From the NCBI GenBank assembly GCA_002305475.1, contig DBRB01000003.1, positions 13,360 to 77,359 on the forward strand: a stretch of 64,000 bases of DNA, written 5' to 3'. Within the stretch, counting starts at the first letter, position 1, and each line of letters starts with the position of its first letter. The stretch comes from a candidate division WWE3 bacterium UBA1379 (GTDB taxonomy: Bacteria > Patescibacteriota > WWE3 > UBA101185 > UBA10185). The position numbers and the translations under genes are program-made. The notes below the pieces were generated by a model. It was not told the origin of the DNA. It ran no database searches and was given only the letters and a program-made list of their open reading frames with translations. Shown in pieces: positions 1,440 to 9,060 of this stretch.

Positions 1440-1527
1440 TGGTGCCGTGGGAGAGAGTCGAACTCTCACGGGAGTTGAATCCCAGTGGTTTTTGAGACCA
1501 CCGCGTATACCATTCCGCCACCACGGC
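1440..1527 (-). tRNA. tRNA-Leu, anticodon CAA. It is 88 nt with a long variable arm and an encoded CCA end.
   Basis: The reverse complement folds as a cloverleaf. The acceptor stem is GCCGTGG/CCACGGC, the D arm GCG...CGC, and the anticodon stem GTGGT/ACCAC with loop CTCAAAA. The T arm is GAGAG-TTCGACT-CTCTC, with a 17-nt variable arm, discriminator A and CCA. Confidence 0.85.
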
Positions 1528-2180: not shown

Positions 2181-2735
2181 ATGTTAATTGCTACAGACTT
2201 AAAAACAGGAACTATATTCAAGGAGGACGGATATCCGTATCAGGTAGTTAAATATGAACACACAAAAACAGCCAGAGCAGGTGCAACGGTTAAAGTAAAA
2301 GCACGAAACCTGGTTACTGGTGCAGTTTTAGAAAAGGGGTATCTGGGATCAGCTAAAGTGGAAGAAGCTGATATTTCAAGAAGAAATGCCCAATACCTAT
2401 ATAAAGATAACGGATATGTATTCATGGATCCTCAATCTTATGAACAAATTACAATTTCGGCTGATGTATTGGGCGATCAGGTGAAGTTTTTGATGGAAGG
2501 TGAAAATGTAATTGTGATGTATTTTGAAGGACGTCCGGTTTCCGTCGATTTACCTATATCAATGGTATTCGAAGTTACCTACACAGAGCCGGGATTTAAA
2601 GGTAACACAGTATCCAATGTCTTAAAGGATGCAACTTTAAATAACGGAGCAACTGCAAAAGTGCCGACATTTATTAAAATCGGGGATAAAATAAAAGTAG
2701 ATACTCGTACCGGCGAGTATGTATCCCGGGCTTAA
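2181..2735 (+). CDS. efp: Elongation factor P.
   Basis: A 184-aa protein with a KOW-like N-terminus (GTIFKEDGYPYQVVKYEHTKTARAGATVKVKARNLVTG) followed by two OB domains. It is collinear with bacterial EF-P. Confidence 0.9.
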   Translation: MLIATDLKTGTIFKEDGYPYQVVKYEHTKTARAGATVKVKARNLVTGAVLEKGYLGSAKVEEADISRRNAQYLYKDNGYVFMDPQSYEQITISADVLGDQVKFLMEGENVIVMYFEGRPVSVDLPISMVFEVTYTEPGFKGNTVSNVLKDATLNNGATAKVPTFIKIGDKIKVDTRTGEYVSRA

Positions 2736-2754: not shown

Positions 2755-3684
2755 ATGGATATTCAACAAGTAATTGATATCAAAGGTTTTTCTGTTCCGA
2801 CCATTCTCCTTTTTATGCTGGTAGGGTTCTTTACTTTGAGTTTTGTTTTCTGGCGGCTAGGGAAGAAAGAAGGGTTTGATGAGGAAAAGCTCTTTGATCT
2901 TTTATTGATCAGCCTGGTTTTATCTTCAGGTGTATTAAAGGTAGATCCACTGATAGTTATTACGATTATAATATTTGCAGTTTATCTTAGGTCATATTTT
3001 TGGAAATGGTCCACTTTTAGAATTCTGGACGTCTATTCCTTAGCATTGATGTTAGGTGTTGTTCCTCCGGTAATCGGTTATTCAATAATCTATAATCAAC
3101 CGTTATACATTATGTTTGTTCCTGCATTAGCTATTATGTATATGTTTTTCTCACGTATCCGTAACATAAAAATAAAGTCGGGTTATTCATTTTCACTTAT
3201 TCTGTTATTCGCGATAGCGTTTGGGTTGATATTAAGCAGAGATACTAAGCATTTGCTTTTTTATTCCGTGTTATTTATCATAAGCCTAGCAAACATTTAT
3301 TTAAGAGAAAGAAAAGAAATGGCCACACCTAATTTACCATTAAATCTGATCAACAAATTAAGAAACGATTTACTAACTAAAAGAAAAAGATTAAAAATTG
3401 AACAGAAAGTATTGATAAAAGAAGACCCATATATGGAAGCTGATAGGACAGGGGATAACGCGGAATTGATGGATGAAGCTATACTTGAAGATCACTCAAA
3501 AGAGGTTCATGACGTGGTAAAAAGTTCAGTAGATAGCATGTTGATGCAGGTCAGGAAAGCTTTAGGTAGAATGCGTATAGGTAAATACGGTATGTGTGAA
3601 GTTTGCGGAAAATCTATCGATCCGGCACGACTGAAAGCTTATCCTGAGGCGACAACCTGCGTAGAACATGCGCCTAAGAATTAA
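2755..3684 (+). CDS. Fusion protein: an N-terminal polytopic membrane domain (weakly Lgt-like) joined to a C-terminal DksA/TraR-family C4 zinc-finger domain.
   Basis: The first ~190 aa contain at least five hydrophobic helices. The C-terminal ~110 aa carry a coiled-coil region plus CEVCGKSIDPARLKAYPEATTCVEHA, matching the DksA/TraR CxxC-(x17)-CxxC finger. The frame is continuous, with no stop between the two parts. Confidence 0.55.
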   Translation: MDIQQVIDIKGFSVPTILLFMLVGFFTLSFVFWRLGKKEGFDEEKLFDLLLISLVLSSGVLKVDPLIVITIIIFAVYLRSYFWKWSTFRILDVYSLALMLGVVPPVIGYSIIYNQPLYIMFVPALAIMYMFFSRIRNIKIKSGYSFSLILLFAIAFGLILSRDTKHLLFYSVLFIISLANIYLRERKEMATPNLPLNLINKLRNDLLTKRKRLKIEQKVLIKEDPYMEADRTGDNAELMDEAILEDHSKEVHDVVKSSVDSMLMQVRKALGRMRIGKYGMCEVCGKSIDPARLKAYPEATTCVEHAPKN

Positions 3685-3696
3685 TATATAAGTTAA

Positions 3697-4017
3697 ATGG
3701 TACAAAACTGCCAGTATTTTCTATTTGACTATATTCCATCAGCATACTTTTTAATCATCGCGTCTCTAATTTTGTTTAATATATGGTTTTTCAGACAAAA
3801 AAGTATATCATGGATAGCTTATTTTCTGGTAGTTGGCGGTTCCTTGTGGAATTTATCCGAAAGAATAATGAATAAAGGCTGTGTTAGAGATTACTGGGAT
3901 TTCTTTGGTTTATTCATATTTAATGCTGCGGATCTGATGATCATATTCGGACTAGTGATTGTTTTTTGCTTGCACAATAAAAAAAGTGTACTATTTACAA
4001 AGGAGGACTTATCATGA
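3697..4017 (+). CDS. lspA: Minimal (106-aa), divergent lipoprotein signal peptidase II (LspA-like).
   Basis: IAYFLVVGGSLWNLSERIMNKGCVRDYWDFFGLFIFNAADLMIIFG is collinear with E. coli LspA [29 protein letters not shown]...FNLADTAICVG. In this sequence the GNxxDR Asp is Glu (WNLSER), while the FNxAD Asp is kept. Four TM segments are present. Confidence 0.6.
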   Translation: MVQNCQYFLFDYIPSAYFLIIASLILFNIWFFRQKSISWIAYFLVVGGSLWNLSERIMNKGCVRDYWDFFGLFIFNAADLMIIFGLVIVFCLHNKKSVLFTKEDLS

Positions 4018-4448
4018 GCAAAACAGTATTAATAGTTGAAGATGAAGCCGATATCAGGGCACTATATTCTGAAGTCTTACGAGACGCAGGTTTCAACGTC
4101 ATAGAAGCTCCGGACGGTACAACGGGACTGGATAGGGCAGCGGAAGGTAATTGGGATATTCTTTTATTGGATATTATTCTTCCCGGAAGTGACGGCGTAA
4201 ACGTCCTGAAAAAGATTAAGGCTAATCCGGCAATAAACAACAAGCCGATCATTTTATTAACAAATTTAGGTGTAGAACACGTCATTAATGAGTGTTTCGA
4301 GATAGGGGCGGACGGATATTTAATTAAATCTGAAATCACACCCGATAAGATAGTTGAGGAAGTTGTCAATTATTTGGGTATACAGCCTAAATCCGGTGAA
4401 AATACTCAGCAAACCGAAAACACAGATACACAGCCATCCGATAACTAA
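4014..4448 (+). CDS. Stand-alone response-regulator receiver (CheY-like) with an acidic Q/T-rich C-terminal tail.
   Basis: The receiver motifs are present: VLIVEDE, the phospho-acceptor region ILLLDIILPGSDG, and the conserved Thr/Lys region PIILLTNLG. There is no output domain. An AAGGAGG RBS sits upstream. Confidence 0.8.
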   Translation: MSKTVLIVEDEADIRALYSEVLRDAGFNVIEAPDGTTGLDRAAEGNWDILLLDIILPGSDGVNVLKKIKANPAINNKPIILLTNLGVEHVINECFEIGADGYLIKSEITPDKIVEEVVNYLGIQPKSGENTQQTENTDTQPSDN

Positions 4449-4456
4449 AAAGCTAT

Positions 4457-5179
4457 ATGGAAATAATTTTTGAAGATAATGACTTGCTGGTTGTAAATAA
4501 GCCTGCAGGTTTAATTGTTAATAATTCTCATACATCCGGTAGCGATACACTGCAGAATATAGTCAGTGAAAACATAACTTTTGAAGAAATGTCTGGTGAA
4601 ATTGATACAGAAGAAATCTATGAAAGTGAATTTAAACAGCGTGGGGGAATTATCCATCGGCTTGATAAGGACACCTCAGGCATAATATTGATTGGAAAAA
4701 ACGAGCCAGCGTTTAATAGAATGCAAAAACAGTTCAAGGAAAGAAGTGTTGAAAAAGAATATTTAGCTATAGTGCTGGGCTTAGTGGAAGAAGAAAAATT
4801 TGAAATCAACGCTCCTATTAAGAGAAATCCTAATAACCGGACGAAGTACGCAATAGTGCGAGACGGTAAGGAGGCTATGACCTCATTTGAGAAAATCAGG
4901 TATTTTACTGACAATAATCAAAATAAGTACACTGTATTAAAAGCATACCCCAAAACAGGCAGAACACATCAGATCAGAGTTCACTTATCTGCTCTGGGCT
5001 TTCCTATAGCAGGGGACAAAATGTACTCAACAAGGCATCAGTTGGAAAATACAAATCATTTTGGAAGATTAATGCTTCATGCAAGAAGTATCAGGTTTAA
5101 TCACCCATCTAGCAATACTGAAATGTATCTAAAAGCAGATATTCCAAGAGAATTTCTGCCGTATTTAGAAAATTTGTAA
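4457..5179 (+). CDS. RluA-family pseudouridine synthase. It has no S4 domain.
   Basis: Catalytic motif HRLDKDTSGIILIGKN with the conserved Asp; also the downstream K(E/D)YLA motif and a basic RTHQIRVHL region, as in RluA/RluD. Confidence 0.8.
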   Translation: MEIIFEDNDLLVVNKPAGLIVNNSHTSGSDTLQNIVSENITFEEMSGEIDTEEIYESEFKQRGGIIHRLDKDTSGIILIGKNEPAFNRMQKQFKERSVEKEYLAIVLGLVEEEKFEINAPIKRNPNNRTKYAIVRDGKEAMTSFEKIRYFTDNNQNKYTVLKAYPKTGRTHQIRVHLSALGFPIAGDKMYSTRHQLENTNHFGRLMLHARSIRFNHPSSNTEMYLKADIPREFLPYLENL

Positions 5180-5276: not shown

Positions 5277-6422
5277 ATGTCTAGTACTGCTCGACGGACA
5301 TCCGCTGCATCAAGAAGATCAAAAACGTACTCAAAAGTTTACAAAAGAACTTCCGTATCAAAAGCGTCAAAAAAAACCATAAGAAAAAGCAGAATATCGT
5401 CCCGTCCTAATCTAGGAAAATCAAAAATAGGTAAAACAGTAAAAAAGATTGCTGCAGTACTGGGTCTTTTTATAATATCGGCTTTATTTGTACTGGCAGT
5501 AGGTTTTTATAAGAATCTGACAAAGAATTTTGCTTCAGCCGATTCGGTAAATTCGTATTCTGTACAGACCCAGGATATCTATTCAGTACTATATATATCG
5601 GTCAGTGACCTAGATCAGGCAGACAGTCCCGACGGCATCCTGGATGTACATTCCATGAGTTTTGTGATTGTAGATAAAAACAATAAAAAACTGGTGAAAT
5701 ATGATATTGATCCGAATATAACTATTGATGTACCGGGGAAGTTCGGAGATGAACAGGTAACAAAAGTCCTACATCTGGGATCATTAAACGCCAAGGATCC
5801 ATTAGAGGGAGGAGTCAGACTGGCTTCCAGAAGTGTTGCTAGGATATTTGGGTATCCGGTAGATAAATACATTATTACGGATGAAAATGTGAAAAATACT
5901 TATGATAGATTATTCAATCATGGCGTAGTGACTCTGGAGCTGGGTAAACCGGGCGGAAAGAAAACGGATTTCACTCTGGAAGAATTTTATAGCCTAGTTT
6001 CTTTTATAAGAACACTACCGTCTGATCGCTTTATTTTTAAATCATTTAATTATGATTACCTACAAAATCCGGATAAGATAAATACGGAAATCAGGGATGT
6101 AACTTTTGACAGCCAGATATCCCTGGAAAAAAAGAGTATATCGGTGTTGAATGGATCGGGACTATCGGGAGTAGCAGGCTATACTTCCAGACAGATTGAA
6201 AATATGGGGGGCAGGGTTGTAACGGTGGGAAATGCTGATAAATCATATGATAAAAGTATTCTTGTTGTGGATGACAAAGAATCAGAGACTGCCAGAAAAC
6301 TTGCCCATAGCTTTGATTTCAAACAGGTAATGACAAGGGAGGAATTCGGTCTGCAGGAAAATGAGGTAGGACGTTCCGATATTGTATTGATTATCGGACT
6401 TGACATTCAGGATATGTTGTAA
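5277..6422 (+). CDS. LytR-CpsA-Psr (LCP) family cell-envelope phosphotransferase with a LytR_C-type C-terminal domain.
   Basis: A basic N-terminus plus a single TM anchor. The LCP core block is VLYISVSD...DVHSMSFVIVDKNNKKLVKYDIDPNITIDVPG...DKYIITDENV. The C-terminus is ISVLNGSGLSGVAGYTSRQIENMGGRVV. Confidence 0.6.
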   Translation: MSSTARRTSAASRRSKTYSKVYKRTSVSKASKKTIRKSRISSRPNLGKSKIGKTVKKIAAVLGLFIISALFVLAVGFYKNLTKNFASADSVNSYSVQTQDIYSVLYISVSDLDQADSPDGILDVHSMSFVIVDKNNKKLVKYDIDPNITIDVPGKFGDEQVTKVLHLGSLNAKDPLEGGVRLASRSVARIFGYPVDKYIITDENVKNTYDRLFNHGVVTLELGKPGGKKTDFTLEEFYSLVSFIRTLPSDRFIFKSFNYDYLQNPDKINTEIRDVTFDSQISLEKKSISVLNGSGLSGVAGYTSRQIENMGGRVVTVGNADKSYDKSILVVDDKESETARKLAHSFDFKQVMTREEFGLQENEVGRSDIVLIIGLDIQDML

Positions 6423-6453
6423 TAACATAATGACATTGTCTCTCTCCTTTCTT

Positions 6454-6489
6454 CACCCCGGTCCCAAATTAGGGCCGGGGTTGTGTTTT
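6454..6489 (+). terminator. Rho-independent terminator after the LCP gene.
   Basis: A GC-rich hairpin CCCCGGTCCC-AAATTA-GGGCCGGGG directly followed by TTGTGTTTTTC. Confidence 0.7.
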
Positions 6490-6495
6490 TCTTAT

Positions 6496-9060
6496 ATGTC
6501 TATATACATCGGTATACCTTTATTACTGATCGGAATTCTAATAGCAATTATTTACAGGCGGATAAAAACCCAGCCACTGGATTTAGGTGCGGTCAGCAAT
6601 ACCCCTTTTGAAGTCCTTGAAATAAAAATGCCAAAGACACTGGAAGCTGAAAGGGAATCCCAGATGTCAGCTTTGTCGGCAGAAAATATGTTTGCCTCAC
6701 TGCACGGACTGTTAAAAGAGGATGCTACTGAACAGGAGCATTTTTCCTTTGAAATGGTGGCGGACGGAGCAAACGGTATCAAGTTTTATGTGGCAGTACC
6801 TCAAAATGTTTTAAAGTTTGTGGAAAGTCAGATCTATGCCCAGTACCCGTCCTGTCAGATCAGGGTAGTTGAGGATTACACTACTAGTGCTGATTTCAAA
6901 CAGGGGGAGTATGAAATATCCTCCGTAACATTAACAAAAGACTATTTCTTTCCTATAAAAACATTCAGAGATTTTGAAATAGACCCTCTATCGGCAATCA
7001 CTTCCGCTTTTTCCGGAGTATCGTTTGATGAACAGGTTTGGTTGCAGTTTCTAATAAAACCTATTCCTGACGGATGGCAGAAACCCGGATACAATTATGT
7101 GGATTTTGTGAGAACCGGAGTGGATAAAACAAATAAACCCGGTATTCTGGGAGAAGTTGGTAAAATATTCTTTAAGGAATTTGTTGATATCGGACTAGGA
7201 ATTCTTACCGGATTGTTTACACCGCATCCTCCTGAACCAAGACCCGGTGCAAAAGATGCTCCAAAGCCTGCTCTTGCACCAAGGCTCACTTCTGCCCAGG
7301 ATATGGAAGTAAAAGCGATAGAGAATAAGCTGTCTAAAATGGGATTTGAGGTGGAGATCAGGATACTATCATACAGCAAGGATAGAGCGAGACTGGAGAG
7401 TAATCTTAGATCTCTTACCGCGTCCCTAAAACAATATTCCACCAGCACTTTAAACGGATTTGTAACAAGTCGTGAAACGCACCGTACTGGAAGTCTGGAA
7501 AACTTTATAAAACGTACTTTCTGTGGAGATAAATCCTTCATTTTAAACGTGGAAGAAGTAGCTTCCGTCTACCATTTACCTACCGGACAGGTAGAAACTC
7601 CGAATATTCAATGGATTTATTCCAAAAAGTCCGAACCCCCCGCAGGGCTTCCCACACAGGATTGTTGCTATATCGGGGAAACCATATACAGAAGCCAGAG
7701 AGTAAAATTCGGTATCGCCAATAATGACGACAGACTCAGACATATGTATCTGATTGGTAAGTCAGGTACAGGAAAATCAACACTATTTGAAACCATGATC
7801 AGTCAGGATATTCAGAACGGTTTTGGAGTCGGTGTATTGGACCCCCACGGAGAAACAATAGATAAAGTAATGGAATATATACCGGATAATCGGCTTGATG
7901 ATGTGATATATTTTGACCCTTCAGATACGGAAAGACCTGTCGGTCTTAATCTTCTGGAAATGACCGATCCTTCACAGAAAAACCTCATGGCATCTGGATT
8001 GGTAGCAGCAATCAAACACCACTTTGATTACTCGTGGGGTCCTCGACTGGAATATCTTTTAAACTATAGTATCTTAACCTTGCTTGAAGTTCCCGGAACA
8101 ACTATGCTTAGCATTACCAGGCTCCTGGAGGATGATAATTATCGAAAATTCATTCTTCATTTTGTAAAAGATCCGGTAACCATCCGCTTCTGGGAAACGG
8201 AATTTAAGAATATGAAGAGTAATCAAAAAATGATCACGGAAGCGGTAGCTCCTATTCAGAACAAAGTTAACAGATTTTTGGCTTCAACTACCATCAGAAA
8301 TATTCTGGGACAGGCTAGGTCCACAATTGATATCTGGGATGCCATGAATAATGGGAAAATCCTGATGATGAATCTATCCAAAGGTAAAATAGGGGAGGAT
8401 AATGCAAATCTTTTGGGGGCACTCCTGGTATCCAGAATTCAGTTTATGGCATTACAAAGAGCAAAAATACCTCCTCAGGAAAGAAAACCGTTTTATCTTT
8501 ATGTAGATGAGTTCCAGAATTTTGCTACTGGTAGCTTTGAAAGTATTCTGTCTGAGTCCAGAAAATACGGCCTTGGTTTATACCTGACTCATCAATACAC
8601 TGCACAGCTGCCGGAGGATCTGATGAGGGCGGTATTCGGGAATGTGGGTACTATTGCCACCTACGCTTTAGGAGCTCCAGATGCAAAGCTTCTGGAAAAT
8701 GAGTTTTCTCCTTATTTCAACCAGGAGGATATTATTTCCCTGGAAAGGTTTAATATCTATATCAAACTAATGATGAATGGAATGACGTCATTACCTTTCT
8801 CTGCTAGAATACTCTTACCTTGGGTTGAGGGTGAAGCGGTGGTTCAAAAGACTCCCTACCATCAGAAAGTTATTGAAATGAGCAGGCATAAATTCGGTGC
8901 AGATCGTGAAATGGTTGAAAGTAAAATCAATAAGTGGGTAGAAACACCGTTTGATAAAGGAATAGCTATAGCTATAGAAAACCGGGAAAAGGCAGCAAAA
9001 GCGGCACAGGAAAAAAGCCTACCTCAGGTAGCCCAATCGGTTGAAGAAATTAAAAATTAG
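6496..9060 (+). CDS. Membrane-anchored FtsK/HerA/VirB4/VirD4-superfamily P-loop ATPase (AAA_10/DUF87-like). It has no neighbouring secretion genes.
   Basis: The track ORF begins with TTG at 6400 and overlaps the upstream terminator. The first ATG after the terminator (6496, MSIYIGIPLLLIGILIAIIY) opens with a TM helix. The Walker A motif YLIGKSGTGKST is followed by DPHGE, then the Walker B motif FYLYVDEFQNF. The downstream RKYGLGLYLTHQYTAQL block is typical of HerA and T4SS coupling-protein ATPases. Confidence 0.65.
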   Translation: MSIYIGIPLLLIGILIAIIYRRIKTQPLDLGAVSNTPFEVLEIKMPKTLEAERESQMSALSAENMFASLHGLLKEDATEQEHFSFEMVADGANGIKFYVAVPQNVLKFVESQIYAQYPSCQIRVVEDYTTSADFKQGEYEISSVTLTKDYFFPIKTFRDFEIDPLSAITSAFSGVSFDEQVWLQFLIKPIPDGWQKPGYNYVDFVRTGVDKTNKPGILGEVGKIFFKEFVDIGLGILTGLFTPHPPEPRPGAKDAPKPALAPRLTSAQDMEVKAIENKLSKMGFEVEIRILSYSKDRARLESNLRSLTASLKQYSTSTLNGFVTSRETHRTGSLENFIKRTFCGDKSFILNVEEVASVYHLPTGQVETPNIQWIYSKKSEPPAGLPTQDCCYIGETIYRSQRVKFGIANNDDRLRHMYLIGKSGTGKSTLFETMISQDIQNGFGVGVLDPHGETIDKVMEYIPDNRLDDVIYFDPSDTERPVGLNLLEMTDPSQKNLMASGLVAAIKHHFDYSWGPRLEYLLNYSILTLLEVPGTTMLSITRLLEDDNYRKFILHFVKDPVTIRFWETEFKNMKSNQKMITEAVAPIQNKVNRFLASTTIRNILGQARSTIDIWDAMNNGKILMMNLSKGKIGEDNANLLGALLVSRIQFMALQRAKIPPQERKPFYLYVDEFQNFATGSFESILSESRKYGLGLYLTHQYTAQLPEDLMRAVFGNVGTIATYALGAPDAKLLENEFSPYFNQEDIISLERFNIYIKLMMNGMTSLPFSARILLPWVEGEAVVQKTPYHQKVIEMSRHKFGADREMVESKINKWVETPFDKGIAIAIENREKAAKAAQEKSLPQVAQSVEEIKN

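Follow-up and report, generated by a model that had tools for sequence, protein, structure and literature searches.

DksA-type transcription factors are soluble proteins that reach the active site of RNA polymerase through its secondary channel. In DksA, the coiled-coil tip follows a DxxDxA pattern in which D74 and A76 are essential (PMC4010833), and deletions of yteA, yocK and ylyA, the three B. subtilis homologues, left rrn P1 promoters unaffected (PMC3113569), so that membership of the family does not guarantee DksA-like activity. For the envelope enzyme Lgt, mutagenesis has defined the essential residues, the R143/N146/E151 signature among them, a deltaN-9 form of the E. coli enzyme is inactive, and catalysis does not involve its cytosolic side (PMC4728403). 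In LspA, the catalytic dyad consists of Asp118 and Asp136 (S. aureus numbering), and the Asp of the GNxxDR motif, Asp109, is non-catalytic (PMC6952399).

Here we analysed a 64-kb stretch of DNA (the window) from a bacterium of WWE3, a lineage of ultra-small Patescibacteria, in which a 309-aa reading frame (ORF1) is followed by one of 106 aa (ORF2). ORF1 is a genuine in-frame fusion of an Lgt-fold membrane domain and a cytoplasmic DksA/YteA-like module, and ORF2 is, judged by its sequence, a truncated three-helix homologue of LspA. The literature that we searched contains no description of a membrane-anchored DksA or of an Lgt-DksA fusion and nothing relevant on WWE3 lipoprotein processing or ylyA-lspA synteny; as far as that search reaches the fusion architecture is new, and its function we infer. 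The features of the locus, in window coordinates, are these:

2181..2735, + strand: efp (Pfam EFP domains), 19 nt before ORF1 and a member of the conserved gene string
2755..3684, + strand: ORF1, the pseudo-Lgt::DksA-like fusion, 309 aa (ORF call, homologues, AlphaFold, Foldseek)
2755..3315, + strand: ORF1 residues 1-187, Lgt fold without catalytic residues, with a beta-hairpin (6-15) and seven membrane helices
3313..3339, + strand: ORF1 residues 187-195, linker from helix 7 to the coiled coil, short and of low model confidence
3340..3684, + strand: ORF1 residues 196-309, DksA/YteA-like coiled coil (196-222, 239-275) and zinc finger (PF01258, TIGR02890)
3463..3480, + strand: coiled-coil tip E237-L-M-D240-E-A242, equivalent of DksA D71-x-x-D74-x-A76 by alignment to 2kq9
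3595..3669, + strand: predicted zinc ligands C281, C284, C302 and H305 (CxxC-x17-CxxH)
3697..4017, + strand: ORF2, minimal three-helix LspA homologue, 106 aa (LspA H2-H4 and the Asn52 strand; Peptidase_A8)
3709..3711, + strand: ORF2 C5 of the N-terminal NC motif, whose N4 is LspA Asn52; its proposed disulfide partner is C62
3880..3882, + strand: ORF2 C62 in GCVRD, just before V63 (LspA Val116), invariant in family alignment A2
3889..3891, + strand: ORF2 D65 on the V-x-D strand, catalytic Asp118 (S. aureus) or Asp124 (P. aeruginosa) by HMMER alignment to 6ryo/5dir
3931..3933, + strand: ORF2 D79, catalytic Asp136 of FNxAD by the same alignment
4014..4448, + strand: receiver-only response regulator (PF00072, 81 bits), its start overlapping the ORF2 stop (ATGA)
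4457..5179, + strand: RluD-type pseudouridine synthase (PF00849, 122.6 bits), a conserved gene downstream of lspA

Spacing across the locus is operon-like, with 19 nt between efp and ORF1, 12 nt between ORF1 and ORF2 and a 4-nt overlap of ORF2 with the receiver gene. No terminator-like site lies on the + strand from efp to rluD, and a promoter/terminator scan gave no signal beyond shuffled expectation. Related loci repeat the arrangement: efp stands upstream of the fusion gene in 40, an LspA-like ORF follows it immediately 3' in 40 of 41, rluD belongs to the string in 37, and 23 carry a receiver-only response regulator, in some duplicated, between the mini-LspA and rluD. ORF1 and ORF2 share a reading frame, and the two in-frame stops between them (TAA, then TAT ATA AGT TAA) rule out their joining by readthrough or frameshift and, standing immediately before the ATG, leave no coding room for the first LspA helix (H1) in ORF2.

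The ORF1 fusion and its two modules

The fusion is widely conserved, with 151 ORF1 homologues, mostly full length, and the fused type present in more than 100 independent assemblies. Clustering at 50% identity left the fused architecture in 64 of the best 150 representatives, and the intact fused ORF occurs at 35-53% identity in JGI, ENA, NCBI and Logan assemblies, its distribution so far being confined to WWE3 and related Patescibacteria. The AlphaFold model of ORF1 has a pLDDT of 87.1, and its Foldseek matches in the PDB place Lgt (5azb) first and DksA structures next. The linker is 10 residues long in 97 of 118 family members and falls below pLDDT 50 at residues 190-192. These results bear out an earlier note on this DNA, which had described a membrane region, weakly Lgt-like at its N-terminus, joined in frame to a DksA/TraR module, had called such a membrane-tethered protein unusual and had proposed looking for the same fusion in relatives; no frameshift separates the modules, the Lgt relationship is present, and ORF2 passes the Peptidase_A8 profile.

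The N-terminal ~190 residues of ORF1 form, in the AlphaFold model, the hairpin at 6-15 and seven predicted membrane helices. The ORF1 family profile (A3) matches E. coli Lgt (5azb) with E=1.6e-4, aligned to Lgt residues 14-140, and Foldseek pairs the same structure with ORF1 at probability 1.00 (TM 0.44/0.48; rmsd 9.2 A, which reflects a query of two domains). On the evidence of family profile and Foldseek together, the Lgt relationship of the membrane domain is true homology. The suggested search with the LGT profile (PF01790) succeeded in part, in that 12 of 15 relatives pass it, with matches limited to its N-terminal half, whereas the window protein itself has no match at E<=1, owing to a deletion of ~25 residues in its subclade.

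Comparison with the enzyme revealed that every residue known to inactivate E. coli Lgt on mutation (Y26, G27, H103, G142, R143, G145 and E151) is substituted or unalignable in ORF1, as are N146, G154, R239 and E243, with no counterpart identified for the last two. At the positions of Lgt Y26/G27/H103/R143/N146/E151 the window has I17/L18/L66/V106/Y109/N114, and those of Tyr26/Gly27 (TM1) and His103 (TM3) are hydrophobic in the family consensus. The profile alignment stops at Lgt residue 140, before the signature motif; with the register set by D92=D129, the signature G142-R-L-G-N-F-I-N-G-E-L-W-G154 falls opposite window P105-V-I-G-Y-S-I-I-Y-N-Q-P-L117. A loose R143-type signature (G[RK]xG[NC]) was found in none of the 64 fused representatives and none of 120 family proteins (P0001-P0120), and signature variants of the GR[LIV]GCF type occur in four of the best 150 (P0220, P0236, P0253, P0264), all unfused. 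The domain is also missing the periplasmic head and beta1 of Lgt (~190 aa vs 291 aa), the subclade of the window has also lost arm-2, and its outer loops measure 3 aa each in the AlphaFold model. Neither the 64-kb window nor the related loci contained a second Lgt-like ORF.

Conservation within this domain reaches 2.56 bits in the cytoplasmic half vs 1.77 in the outer half (Mann-Whitney p=5e-9). Identity is >=90% at 17 positions, and 14 of these lie at inner loops or inner helix ends; the cytoplasmic loops (EGFDEEK, WKWSxFRILD, RNxKxKSG) are strongly conserved. The positive-inside charge distribution fits an N-out/C-in topology. Because conservation concentrates on a face irrelevant to Lgt chemistry, the membrane domain is best read as a pseudo-enzyme that presumably serves as an anchor or docking platform.

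The C-terminal module exceeds the gathering cutoff of zf-dskA_traR (PF01258) at residues 276-304, with 34.6 bits against 24.9, as the check suggested in the earlier note required, and its best NCBIfam match is TIGR02890 yteA over residues 200-308. It remains below the NCBIfam trusted cutoffs for yteA (53.9 bits vs 134.4), DksA_like (43.8 vs 105) and dksA (36.9 vs 115.5). Its family profile matches 2kq9, 6ptg, TraR and DksA, and the coiled coil and finger superpose in Foldseek on RNA polymerase-bound DksA (7khi_M) with an rmsd of 2.5 A over 114 columns. At the tip, D240 is present in 118 of 118 family members, position 237 has Glu in 108 and Asp in 10 of them, and Ala occupies position 242 in 82 of the 89 sequences without a gap there; D240 precedes the first Cys by 40-41 residues, against 40 in E. 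coli DksA. The predicted zinc site has canonical spacing in the window, but it is of the CxxC...CxxH type and not the C4 finger that had been reported. Across the family the first three Cys are invariant and the fourth position has Cys in 75 of 118 sequences and His in the other 43, and some fused relatives (P0154, P0158) have no zinc ligands at all. The C-terminal helix of DksA (E. coli residues 135-151) is missing, the tail after the finger having a median of 7.5 aa and only 4 aa in the window, and the N-terminal globular region of DksA is replaced by the membrane domain.

The minimal LspA homologue

ORF2 passes Peptidase_A8 (PF01252) with 37.5 bits against a cutoff of 25, over profile positions 57-137 of 142 only (H2-H4), and scores 33.5 on NCBIfam TIGR00077 (lspA), below its cutoff of 73.95. 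Alone it gave no candidates in a word-index search and no matches to PDB sequences with phmmer; family alignments, built from the ORFs 3' of the fusion in related loci, yielded a profile (A2) that matches 6ryo at 8.9e-9 and 5dir at 2.4e-8. The AlphaFold model (pLDDT 79) has helices at 15-33, 37-58 and 77-103 and one hairpin; the four transmembrane helices and beta-cradle of LspA were not seen in it, and Foldseek relates it weakly to 6ryp (E=1.8, TMq 0.44). Family members span 100-113 aa and, with both catalytic Asp in place, are the smallest LspA-type proteins encountered so far. The prior description of a minimal 106-aa LspA-like product that keeps the FNxAD Asp (here FNAAD) and carries WNLSER thus holds.

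What does not hold is the further claim of altered catalytic residues, because the Asp of GNxxDR is the non-catalytic one. The dyad D65/D79 is intact, invariant in the 28- and 19-sequence family alignments (A2 and A5) and aligned also to the E. coli LspA dyad, and the Glu of WNLSER (E55) aligns with Asp109, a position at which the family varies (E/Q/K/N/F/M/Y/S). Of 14 highly conserved LspA residues (D21, K25, N52, G54, G102, N106, D109, R110, V116, D118, F132, N133, A135, D136), ORF2 keeps ten, namely N4, G48, N52, R56, V63, D65, F75, N76, A78 and D79, which correspond to LspA Asn52, Gly102, Asn106, Arg110, Val116, Asp118, Phe132, Asn133, Ala135 and Asp136. Equivalents of D21, K25 and G54 are missing, D109 has become E55, and the Arg110 position is W, L or F in some family members. 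Asp109 is kept as Asp only in P0127 and P0128, both of which still have H1, and we conjecture that its relaxation in the mini forms reflects a lost contact with that helix.

A pair of cysteines sets the family apart. N4 is nearly invariant in alignment A5, an N-terminal Cys is present in 38 of 41 mini-LspAs (34 as NC or CN), and the C62-type Cys is found in 40 of 41 and in none of the canonical-length LspAs in the set. C5 and C62 are probably joined by a disulfide outside the cytoplasm, in place of the scaffold that was lost, and ORF2, with its dyad predicted to lie on the outer side, has probably kept the function of an aspartyl signal peptidase. No second LspA was found in the 64-kb window or the related loci, nor any lipobox protein, the latter among ~55 real genes from one housekeeping neighbourhood, which form a biased sample.

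Origin of the pairing and its possible role

Neighbouring genes in relatives bear on how the locus came together. The same degenerate Lgt-like protein adjoins a separate DksA-like gene in other Patescibacteria (L042-L044, L047), the two modules are split, overlapping ORFs in L040 and L041, and the stand-alone partner in L042 shares 46% identity with the DksA module of the window; this adjacency indicates a partnership older than the fusion. The pair occurs with no LspA nearby in L040, L042-L044 and L047, and elsewhere (L027, L031, L034, L037) the same fusion lies upstream of an LspA that still has its N-terminal helix. A soluble zf-dskA_traR gene stands immediately upstream of a 142-aa LspA in L052, canonical lspA is followed by rluD in L053, and B. 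subtilis ylyA is presumably likewise upstream of lspA. The S. coelicolor lsp paper makes no mention of a DksA-like neighbour. An old dksA-like/lspA/rluD order would account for the adjacency of ORF1 and ORF2, and explains it better than the lipoprotein-processing pair that had been suggested, since the Lgt-like domain has neither essential residues nor head, is conserved on its cytoplasmic face and pairs with DksA-like genes without LspA.

We favour, with moderate confidence, a reading in which ORF1 is a membrane-anchored RNA polymerase secondary-channel factor, ORF2 is a probably active truncated LspA, and the dksA-like/lspA/rluD string is old. The Lgt-derived seven-helix domain, devoid of active site and periplasmic head, holds the DksA/YteA-type module at the inner membrane face through the ~10-residue linker, with the N-terminus probably out and the C-terminus in. 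Its conserved cytoplasmic loops would offer a surface on which either the globular end of the DksA module or a partner of that module could dock, and the tip E237-x-x-D240-x-A242 would point off the membrane and could enter the secondary channel, so that transcription might be modulated at the membrane, or as a function of it. ORF2 has lost H1 and most of the beta-cradle, kept the dyad and gained C5/C62, and the pseudo-Lgt would have joined the DksA-like gene as a neighbour before fusing with it in WWE3. Against a secondary-channel role, by the alignments, speak the missing C-terminal helix, the Glu in place of the first tip Asp and the NCBIfam scores below cutoff, and steric hindrance may impede the docking of a ~400 kDa polymerase on a factor that is only ~10 residues away from the bilayer. 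Against ORF2 as an LspA speak its weak Foldseek likeness, the replacement of Arg110 in some members and the lipobox proteins that went unseen in the biased sample of window and related loci.

A bolder form of this reading, which we offer only tentatively and think rather doubtful, makes the Lgt-derived domain a lipid or prolipoprotein sensor that would signal the state of membrane or envelope through its cytoplasmic face to a DksA-like coiled coil on the same polypeptide, which would gate RNA polymerase directly by way of the secondary channel, with the disulfide-stapled three-helix LspA as a minimal catalytic core. If true, regulator-poor bacteria of tiny genome could control transcription globally with neither DNA-binding factors nor ppGpp; no secondary-channel factor integral to the membrane would have preceded this one, nor any pseudo-enzyme of Lgt fold with a signalling role.

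Other explanations start from the same observations. The modules might be separate genes joined by a frameshift, as the split ORFs of two subclades (L040, L041) could suggest, or ORF2, so much shorter than canonical LspA, might be a pseudogene fragment of a full-length lspA; the 64 fused representatives, the intact ORF across four assembly sources, the invariance of the ORF2 catalytic residues and Cys pair over about 40 divergent orthologues, and the two stops with no upstream coding space for H1 leave this artefact a negligible probability, and the conservation data effectively refute it. A streamlined lipoprotein pathway, with ORF1 as a divergent but active diacylglyceryl transferase, ORF2 as its signal peptidase and the DksA tail as a regulatory add-on, would fit the true Lgt homology and fold, the lack of another Lgt-like ORF in the window or related loci, the tight linkage that the two genes keep in 40 of 41 loci and the intact dyad, which implies diacylglyceryl-modified substrates somewhere. 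We nonetheless hold it to be very unlikely: all inactivating Lgt positions are substituted or unalignable, the head and beta1 are gone (and deltaN-9 Lgt is inactive) and arm-2 is gone too in the subclade of the window, conservation of the domain is lowest in its outer half, the same domain sits beside DksA-like genes with LspA not nearby, and the Lgt search covers 64 kb of genome, so that a canonical lgt may lie elsewhere.

The near-obligate adjacency, with reading frames overlapping or almost abutting, could instead point to a two-gene peptidase complex, in which the pseudo-Lgt is a non-catalytic subunit replacing the lost H1/beta-cradle of the mini-LspA, for example in presenting substrate or lipid, and the DksA-like part does not act on polymerase but is a cytoplasmic structural or regulatory appendage. 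Canonical Lgt and LspA share substrates, the mini-LspA has no H1 and no D21, K25 or G54, and the pseudo-Lgt retains the N-terminal beta-hairpin arm of Lgt on the outer face. That face and the outer helix halves are, however, poorly conserved, the pseudo-Lgt/DksA-like pair exists in the five LspA-free loci above, the same fusion accompanies LspAs that keep their N-terminal helix, and the family-specific Cys pair looks like an internal remedy for the lost scaffold, all of which makes such a complex unlikely. Sequestration and release, a variant of the membrane-anchored factor and not an exclusive rival to it, would have the membrane domain hold the DksA-like factor inactive until linker proteolysis or dissociation frees it for nucleoid-associated RNA polymerase, much as in anti-sigma or regulated-proteolysis circuits. 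It draws on the short, low-confidence linker of conserved length, the natural split versions (L040-L044) in which the DksA polypeptide is separate and has a Lys-rich N-terminus, the conserved cytoplasmic docking face and the receiver-only regulator in the gene string of 23 loci; but neither a protease site nor a dedicated protease of the site-2 type can be recognised, and the mini-LspA active site at the outer leaflet is on the wrong side to cut the linker, and we consider this variant improbable as well.

Significance and comparison with known systems

Under the membrane-anchored reading, a DksA-type factor built into the membrane opens several options, namely polymerase recruited to the membrane, a factor stored and released, or a second, polymerase-independent job, any of which would alter the view of the DksA family. 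The Lgt fold, that of an essential envelope enzyme and antibiotic target, offers here a clean natural example of repurposing as a pseudo-enzyme. LspA is an antibiotic target too, and its forms of 100-113 aa, in which the dyad and the majority of the residues that contact inhibitors survive, mark out the smallest catalytic core and suggest that a disulfide can stand in for H1 and the beta-cradle. As all members of the family seen so far belong to WWE3 and related Patescibacteria, the findings bear on transcription regulation and secreted-protein processing in reduced organisms.

With E. coli Lgt (5azb/5azc), ORF1 shares the seven-helix body, the N-terminal beta-hairpin arm, homology over Lgt 14-140 and the cytosolic structural Asp129, kept as D92. 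The conserved half is periplasmic in Lgt and cytoplasmic in ORF1, and the enzyme has 291 residues with a periplasmic head, whereas the ORF1 domain has ~190, is headless and is fused at its C-terminus to the DksA-like module. With the DksA/TraR/YteA-YlyA family (1tjl, 7khi, 2kq9, 6ptg), ORF1 has in common the two-helix coiled coil, the acidic tip and a four-ligand finger at the right distance, and its gene lies upstream of lspA like that of the soluble homologue in L052; members of that family are soluble, while the ORF1 module is covalently tethered to a polytopic membrane domain and differs in its ExxDxA tip, the His as fourth zinc ligand in the window's subclade, the absent C-terminal helix and the replaced N-terminal region. 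The ligand-free fused relatives are reminiscent of Zn-free DksA2.

ORF2 is homologous to LspA (6ryo/6ryp of S. aureus, 5dir of P. aeruginosa) over H2-H4, with both Asp of the dyad and with rluD downstream, but LspA has ~160 residues and four helices where ORF2 has 106 and three, H1 (Asp21, Lys25) and most of the beta-cradle (Gly54) being gone, and the Cys pair flanking the Asn52/Val116 equivalents is specific to the ORF2 family. ToxR/CadC and anti-sigma-factor tethering provide a functional analogy only, in that a cytoplasmic module acting on transcription is held by a transmembrane part capable of envelope sensing; ToxR/CadC-type regulators have no sequence relationship to ORF1. Those systems pair DNA-binding or sigma-binding domains with a single-pass anchor, whereas ORF1 pairs an effector of the secondary-channel type with a seven-helix pseudo-enzyme anchor.

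The gene string and the spread of the fusion

The window carries a tightly packed forward-strand string that runs from efp through ORF1, ORF2, a response regulator and rluD to a LytR_C protein and an ATPase.

Genes of the string and its 5' neighbourhood
1440-1527, minus strand: tRNA-Leu(CAA), between dnaB and a 138-aa minus-strand ORF
2181..2735, plus strand: efp, 19 nt 5' of ORF1
2755..3684, plus strand: ORF1, 309 aa, membrane domain fused to a DksA-like module (zf-dskA_traR by Pfam)
3697..4017, plus strand: ORF2, 106 aa, mini-LspA (Peptidase_A8 by Pfam), after a 12-nt gap
4014..4448, plus strand: receiver-only response regulator, 144 aa (PF00072), its ATG overlapping the ORF2 stop by 4 nt
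4457..5179, plus strand: RluD-type pseudouridine synthase
5277-6422, plus strand: membrane-anchored LytR_C-domain protein
6400-9060, plus strand: DUF8128/DUF87 (HerA/TrwB-like) ATPase, ~880 aa

ORF1 and ORF2 share a reading frame with two stops between them (TAA TAT ATA AGT TAA ATG). No terminator-like sites were found on the plus strand of the efp-to-rluD interval, and a promoter scan gave signal at shuffle level. Related loci keep the LytR_C protein and the ATPase in order 3' of rluD (>30 loci) and a regulator counterpart between the mini-LspA and rluD (23 loci), with the regulator gene duplicated in several (L002, L010, L027, L029, L034-L037); this receiver-only protein could be an input to the adjoining membrane-tethered DksA-like protein. 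The tRNA is the sole tRNA or Rfam match within the 64-kb window, and a family search with the 138-aa ORF (1645-2061) gave no significant match. In one related locus (L052) a soluble 118-aa zf-dskA_traR gene lies directly 5' of a 142-aa LspA, and in another (L053) rluD comes next after a canonical lspA; B. subtilis has the order ylyA-lspA-rluD. Because these orders match, the window looks like an ancient dksA-like/lspA/rluD string whose 5' gene was joined by an Lgt-like domain.

The in-frame union of a membrane region with a DksA/TraR module, read by the earlier note from this sequence, was borne out by 151 ORF1 homologues from independent assemblies (JGI, ENA, NCBI and Logan), nearly all of them full length (306-367 aa) and, where named, from WWE3 or 'Patescibacteria group' hosts. 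One match on a 2.7-kb contig (P0001) is 100% identical to the window; the others share only 35-53% identity with it, and because of this divergence we judge the fusion to be an architecture of long standing, kept by selection, rather than a frameshift; we give next to no credence to an artefact. PF01790 (LGT) and PF01258 occur together in ~16 of the listed homologues. When 1.84 billion cluster representatives were searched exhaustively by HMMER with a membrane-domain profile, 1,516 proteins matched at E<=1e-3, of which 50 reached E<=1e-30; the best 150 of the 1,516 include 64 with a DksA-like C-terminus and 34 unfused ones that cover the whole domain. Only four of the 150 carry an R143-type Lgt signature, all unfused and weak-scoring. 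These four (P0220, P0236, P0253, P0264) are canonical-looking short Lgt proteins of 208-259 aa with GR[LIV]GCFxxGCCYG as signature and YGG instead of HGG. They show that variation in the Lgt signature goes beyond the E. coli motif, and that strict motif expressions miss real Lgts.

All three domain families are already known, and the proteins have database entries with automatically assigned names ('TraR/DksA C4-type zinc finger protein', 'prolipoprotein diacylglyceryl transferase family protein'); the literature searched yielded no account of an Lgt-DksA fusion, a three-helix LspA or any DksA-like protein integral to the membrane. Both the fusion and the mini-LspA would be unexpected to specialists and are directly testable. 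Several MAG records with a Patescibacteria-type locus (L043, L044 and many other related loci) are titled 'Actinomycetota', 'Gammaproteobacteria' or 'Candidatus Saccharibacteria', yet in their genes and gene order they correspond to WWE3/Patescibacteria loci, and these labels probably reflect mis-binning or coarse automatic taxonomy.

The membrane domain and its DksA-like partner

The Lgt resemblance that the earlier note saw at the N-terminus stood up as homology, with the domain profile matching E. coli Lgt (5azb, E=1.6e-4, Lgt residues 14-140 only), Lgt ranking first and DksA structures next in a Foldseek search of the PDB, and 12 of 15 relatives passing PF01790 (best 1.6e-16), but the window's own ORF1 fails that model, its subclade having lost the ~25 residues equivalent to Lgt arm-2. 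A confident AlphaFold model (pLDDT 87.1, 118 sequences) predicts a beta-hairpin (6-15), seven helices and a disordered linker (187-195) ahead of a coiled coil and finger. Lgt requires Y26, G27, H103, G142, R143, G145 and E151, together with the signature G142RLGNFINGELWG154 and the beta1 strand (Mao et al., PMC4728403). With D92 (Lgt D129), the only residue conserved, setting the register, Lgt Y26, G27, H103, R143, N146 and E151 are replaced in the window by I17, L18, L66, V106, Y109 and N114; each outer loop spans three residues, the head domain is absent, and the catalytic apparatus of Lgt is gone. Lgt D129 itself is cytosolic and non-essential, on a side without a role in catalysis (PMC4728403). 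When conservation across the 118-sequence alignment was projected onto an N-out/C-in topology, which the K/R distribution supports, the cytoplasmic half came out as significantly more conserved, at 2.56 bits versus 1.77 for the outer half (Mann-Whitney p=5e-9), and 14 of 17 residues at least 90% identical (F30, W33, G40, F41, D48, W85, S86, R89, D92, V93, R136, S142, G143, F146) belong to three cytoplasmic loops or to inner helix ends. We conclude that the domain is an Lgt-fold pseudo-enzyme (pseudo-Lgt) whose selected surface faces the cytoplasm.

The same two modules also pair outside the fusion. In loci from other Patescibacteria (L042-L044), a 242-244-aa protein matching PF01790 in its N-terminal half only, with F at Y26, A at H103 and 'GFFLGQFLVSQ' at the signature, has a DksA-like gene of 139-141 aa as its separate, immediate 3' neighbour. 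The stand-alone L042 protein and the DksA module of the window share 46% identity. At L047 such a pair adjoins the mraZ-rsmH-ftsL cluster, and two WWE3 subclades (L040, L041) encode the modules in ORFs of their own that overlap and have conserved tails. An LspA-like gene was looked for near L040, L042-L044 and L047 and none was found. The partnership is thus older than the fusion, and this Rosetta-stone pattern argues that pseudo-Lgt and the DksA-like protein act together, with or without LspA.

The overlapping arrangement (L040 5938-6892, L041 1177-2173; proteins P0141, P0142, P0190, P0192, P0193), in which the membrane part bears a conserved basic C-terminal tail, is apparently gene fission or a pre-fusion state, and L040 has lost the mini-LspA. 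In other Patescibacteria a stand-alone DksA-like gene also lies immediately 5' of the mraZ-rsmH-ftsL-ftsI division/cell-wall cluster in L045 (73-411) and L047 (5965-6300), which hints at a link of this lineage to envelope or division genes.

The mini-LspA

ORF2 passes the Peptidase_A8 model (37.5 bits against a cutoff of 25), covering only profile positions 57-137 of 142, and is nearest to lspA in NCBIfam, below the trusted cutoff. Of 41 related loci, 40 have an LspA-like ORF directly 3' of the fusion, and a profile of these ORFs matches 6ryo (8.9e-9) and 5dir (2.4e-8). The catalytic dyad of S. aureus LspA is Asp118 and Asp136, and its 14 highly conserved residues include Asp109 and Arg110 of 'GNxxDR' (Olatunji et al., PMC6952399). 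In the profile alignment D65, D79 and E55 correspond to Asp118, Asp136 and Asp109; D65, N76, D79 and C62 are invariant in the family, while the residue at Asp109 differs among members (E, Q, K, D, N, F, M, Y, S). The dyad is intact, so the description of ORF2 as having altered catalytic residues was incorrect.

Helix H1 (Asp21, Lys25) and the greater part of the beta-cradle (Gly54) are absent, with the N-terminal N4 aligning with Asn52; within the lineage, sizes range from 134-145 aa in forms that have an N-terminal helix (P0127, P0128, L027, L031) to 100-113 aa in three-helix forms, the window's among them. A Cys directly before the V-x-D strand occurs in 40 of 41 mini-LspAs and an N-terminal Cys in 38 (as NC or CN in 34), neither being found in canonical-length LspAs. 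The pair adjoins the Asn52 and Val116 equivalents (N4-C5, C62-V63) on the predicted outer face, and we infer a C5-C62 disulfide staple in place of the lost scaffold. The AlphaFold model has three helices and a hairpin (pLDDT 79), with LspA as its best, weak Foldseek match (E=1.8). No catalytic Lgt or lipobox protein, the point of most weight for ORF2, was seen in the 64 kb or the related loci, a small and biased sample of these genomes.

The DksA module and competing readings

The zf-dskA_traR model is passed at ORF1 residues 276-304 (34.6 bits, cutoff 24.9), and residues 200-308 are nearest to the yteA subfamily and DksA in NCBIfam, below trusted cutoffs. Three features define DksA: a C-terminal helix, a Cys4 finger and a tip with the motif DxxDxA, in which D74 and A76 are essential, and the tip motif is the better predictor of DksA-like function (PMC4010833).

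DksA features in the ORF1 family
Tip motif: E237 (E in 108, D in 10)-x-x-D240 (118 of 118)-x-A242
Tip-to-finger spacing: D240 lies 40-41 residues before the first Cys, versus 40 in E. coli
Zinc site: invariant Cys at the first three ligands; at the fourth, Cys in 75 and His in 43, the window among the latter
C-terminal helix: absent; tail after the finger median 7.5 aa

The finger earlier called a C4 module has His as the window's fourth ligand. The modelled coiled coil and finger superpose on RNA polymerase-bound DksA (7khi_M) at 2.5 A over 114 columns, and the module thus has the requisites for secondary-channel entry, from which we infer RNA polymerase binding. For the B. subtilis homologues no effect on rrn P1 promoters was detected (PMC3113569).

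The best supported reading, to which we give somewhat better than even chances, is that ORF1 would be a factor of the secondary-channel type, anchored in the membrane by an Lgt-fold platform without catalytic function, and that ORF2 would be a signal peptidase II of minimal size that is probably active. That ORF1 is instead a divergent, still active Lgt in a streamlined pathway with ORF2 would fit the Lgt fold, but all residue-level tests contradict it and we hold it improbable. A pseudo-Lgt/mini-LspA complex, with which their adjacency is consistent, seems slightly less improbable, although the outer face of pseudo-Lgt is poorly conserved and pseudo-Lgt occurs without LspA; a sequester-and-release variant is rated about as unlikely as the complex.

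Some fused family members (P0154, P0158, P0168, P0145) have lost some or all of the zinc-binding Cys of the finger and keep the surrounding YPEAT motif (e.g. 'YGISEISGKPI...TTLVDE'). These Cys-losing proteins resemble the Zn-independent DksA2 paralogues of Pseudomonas.
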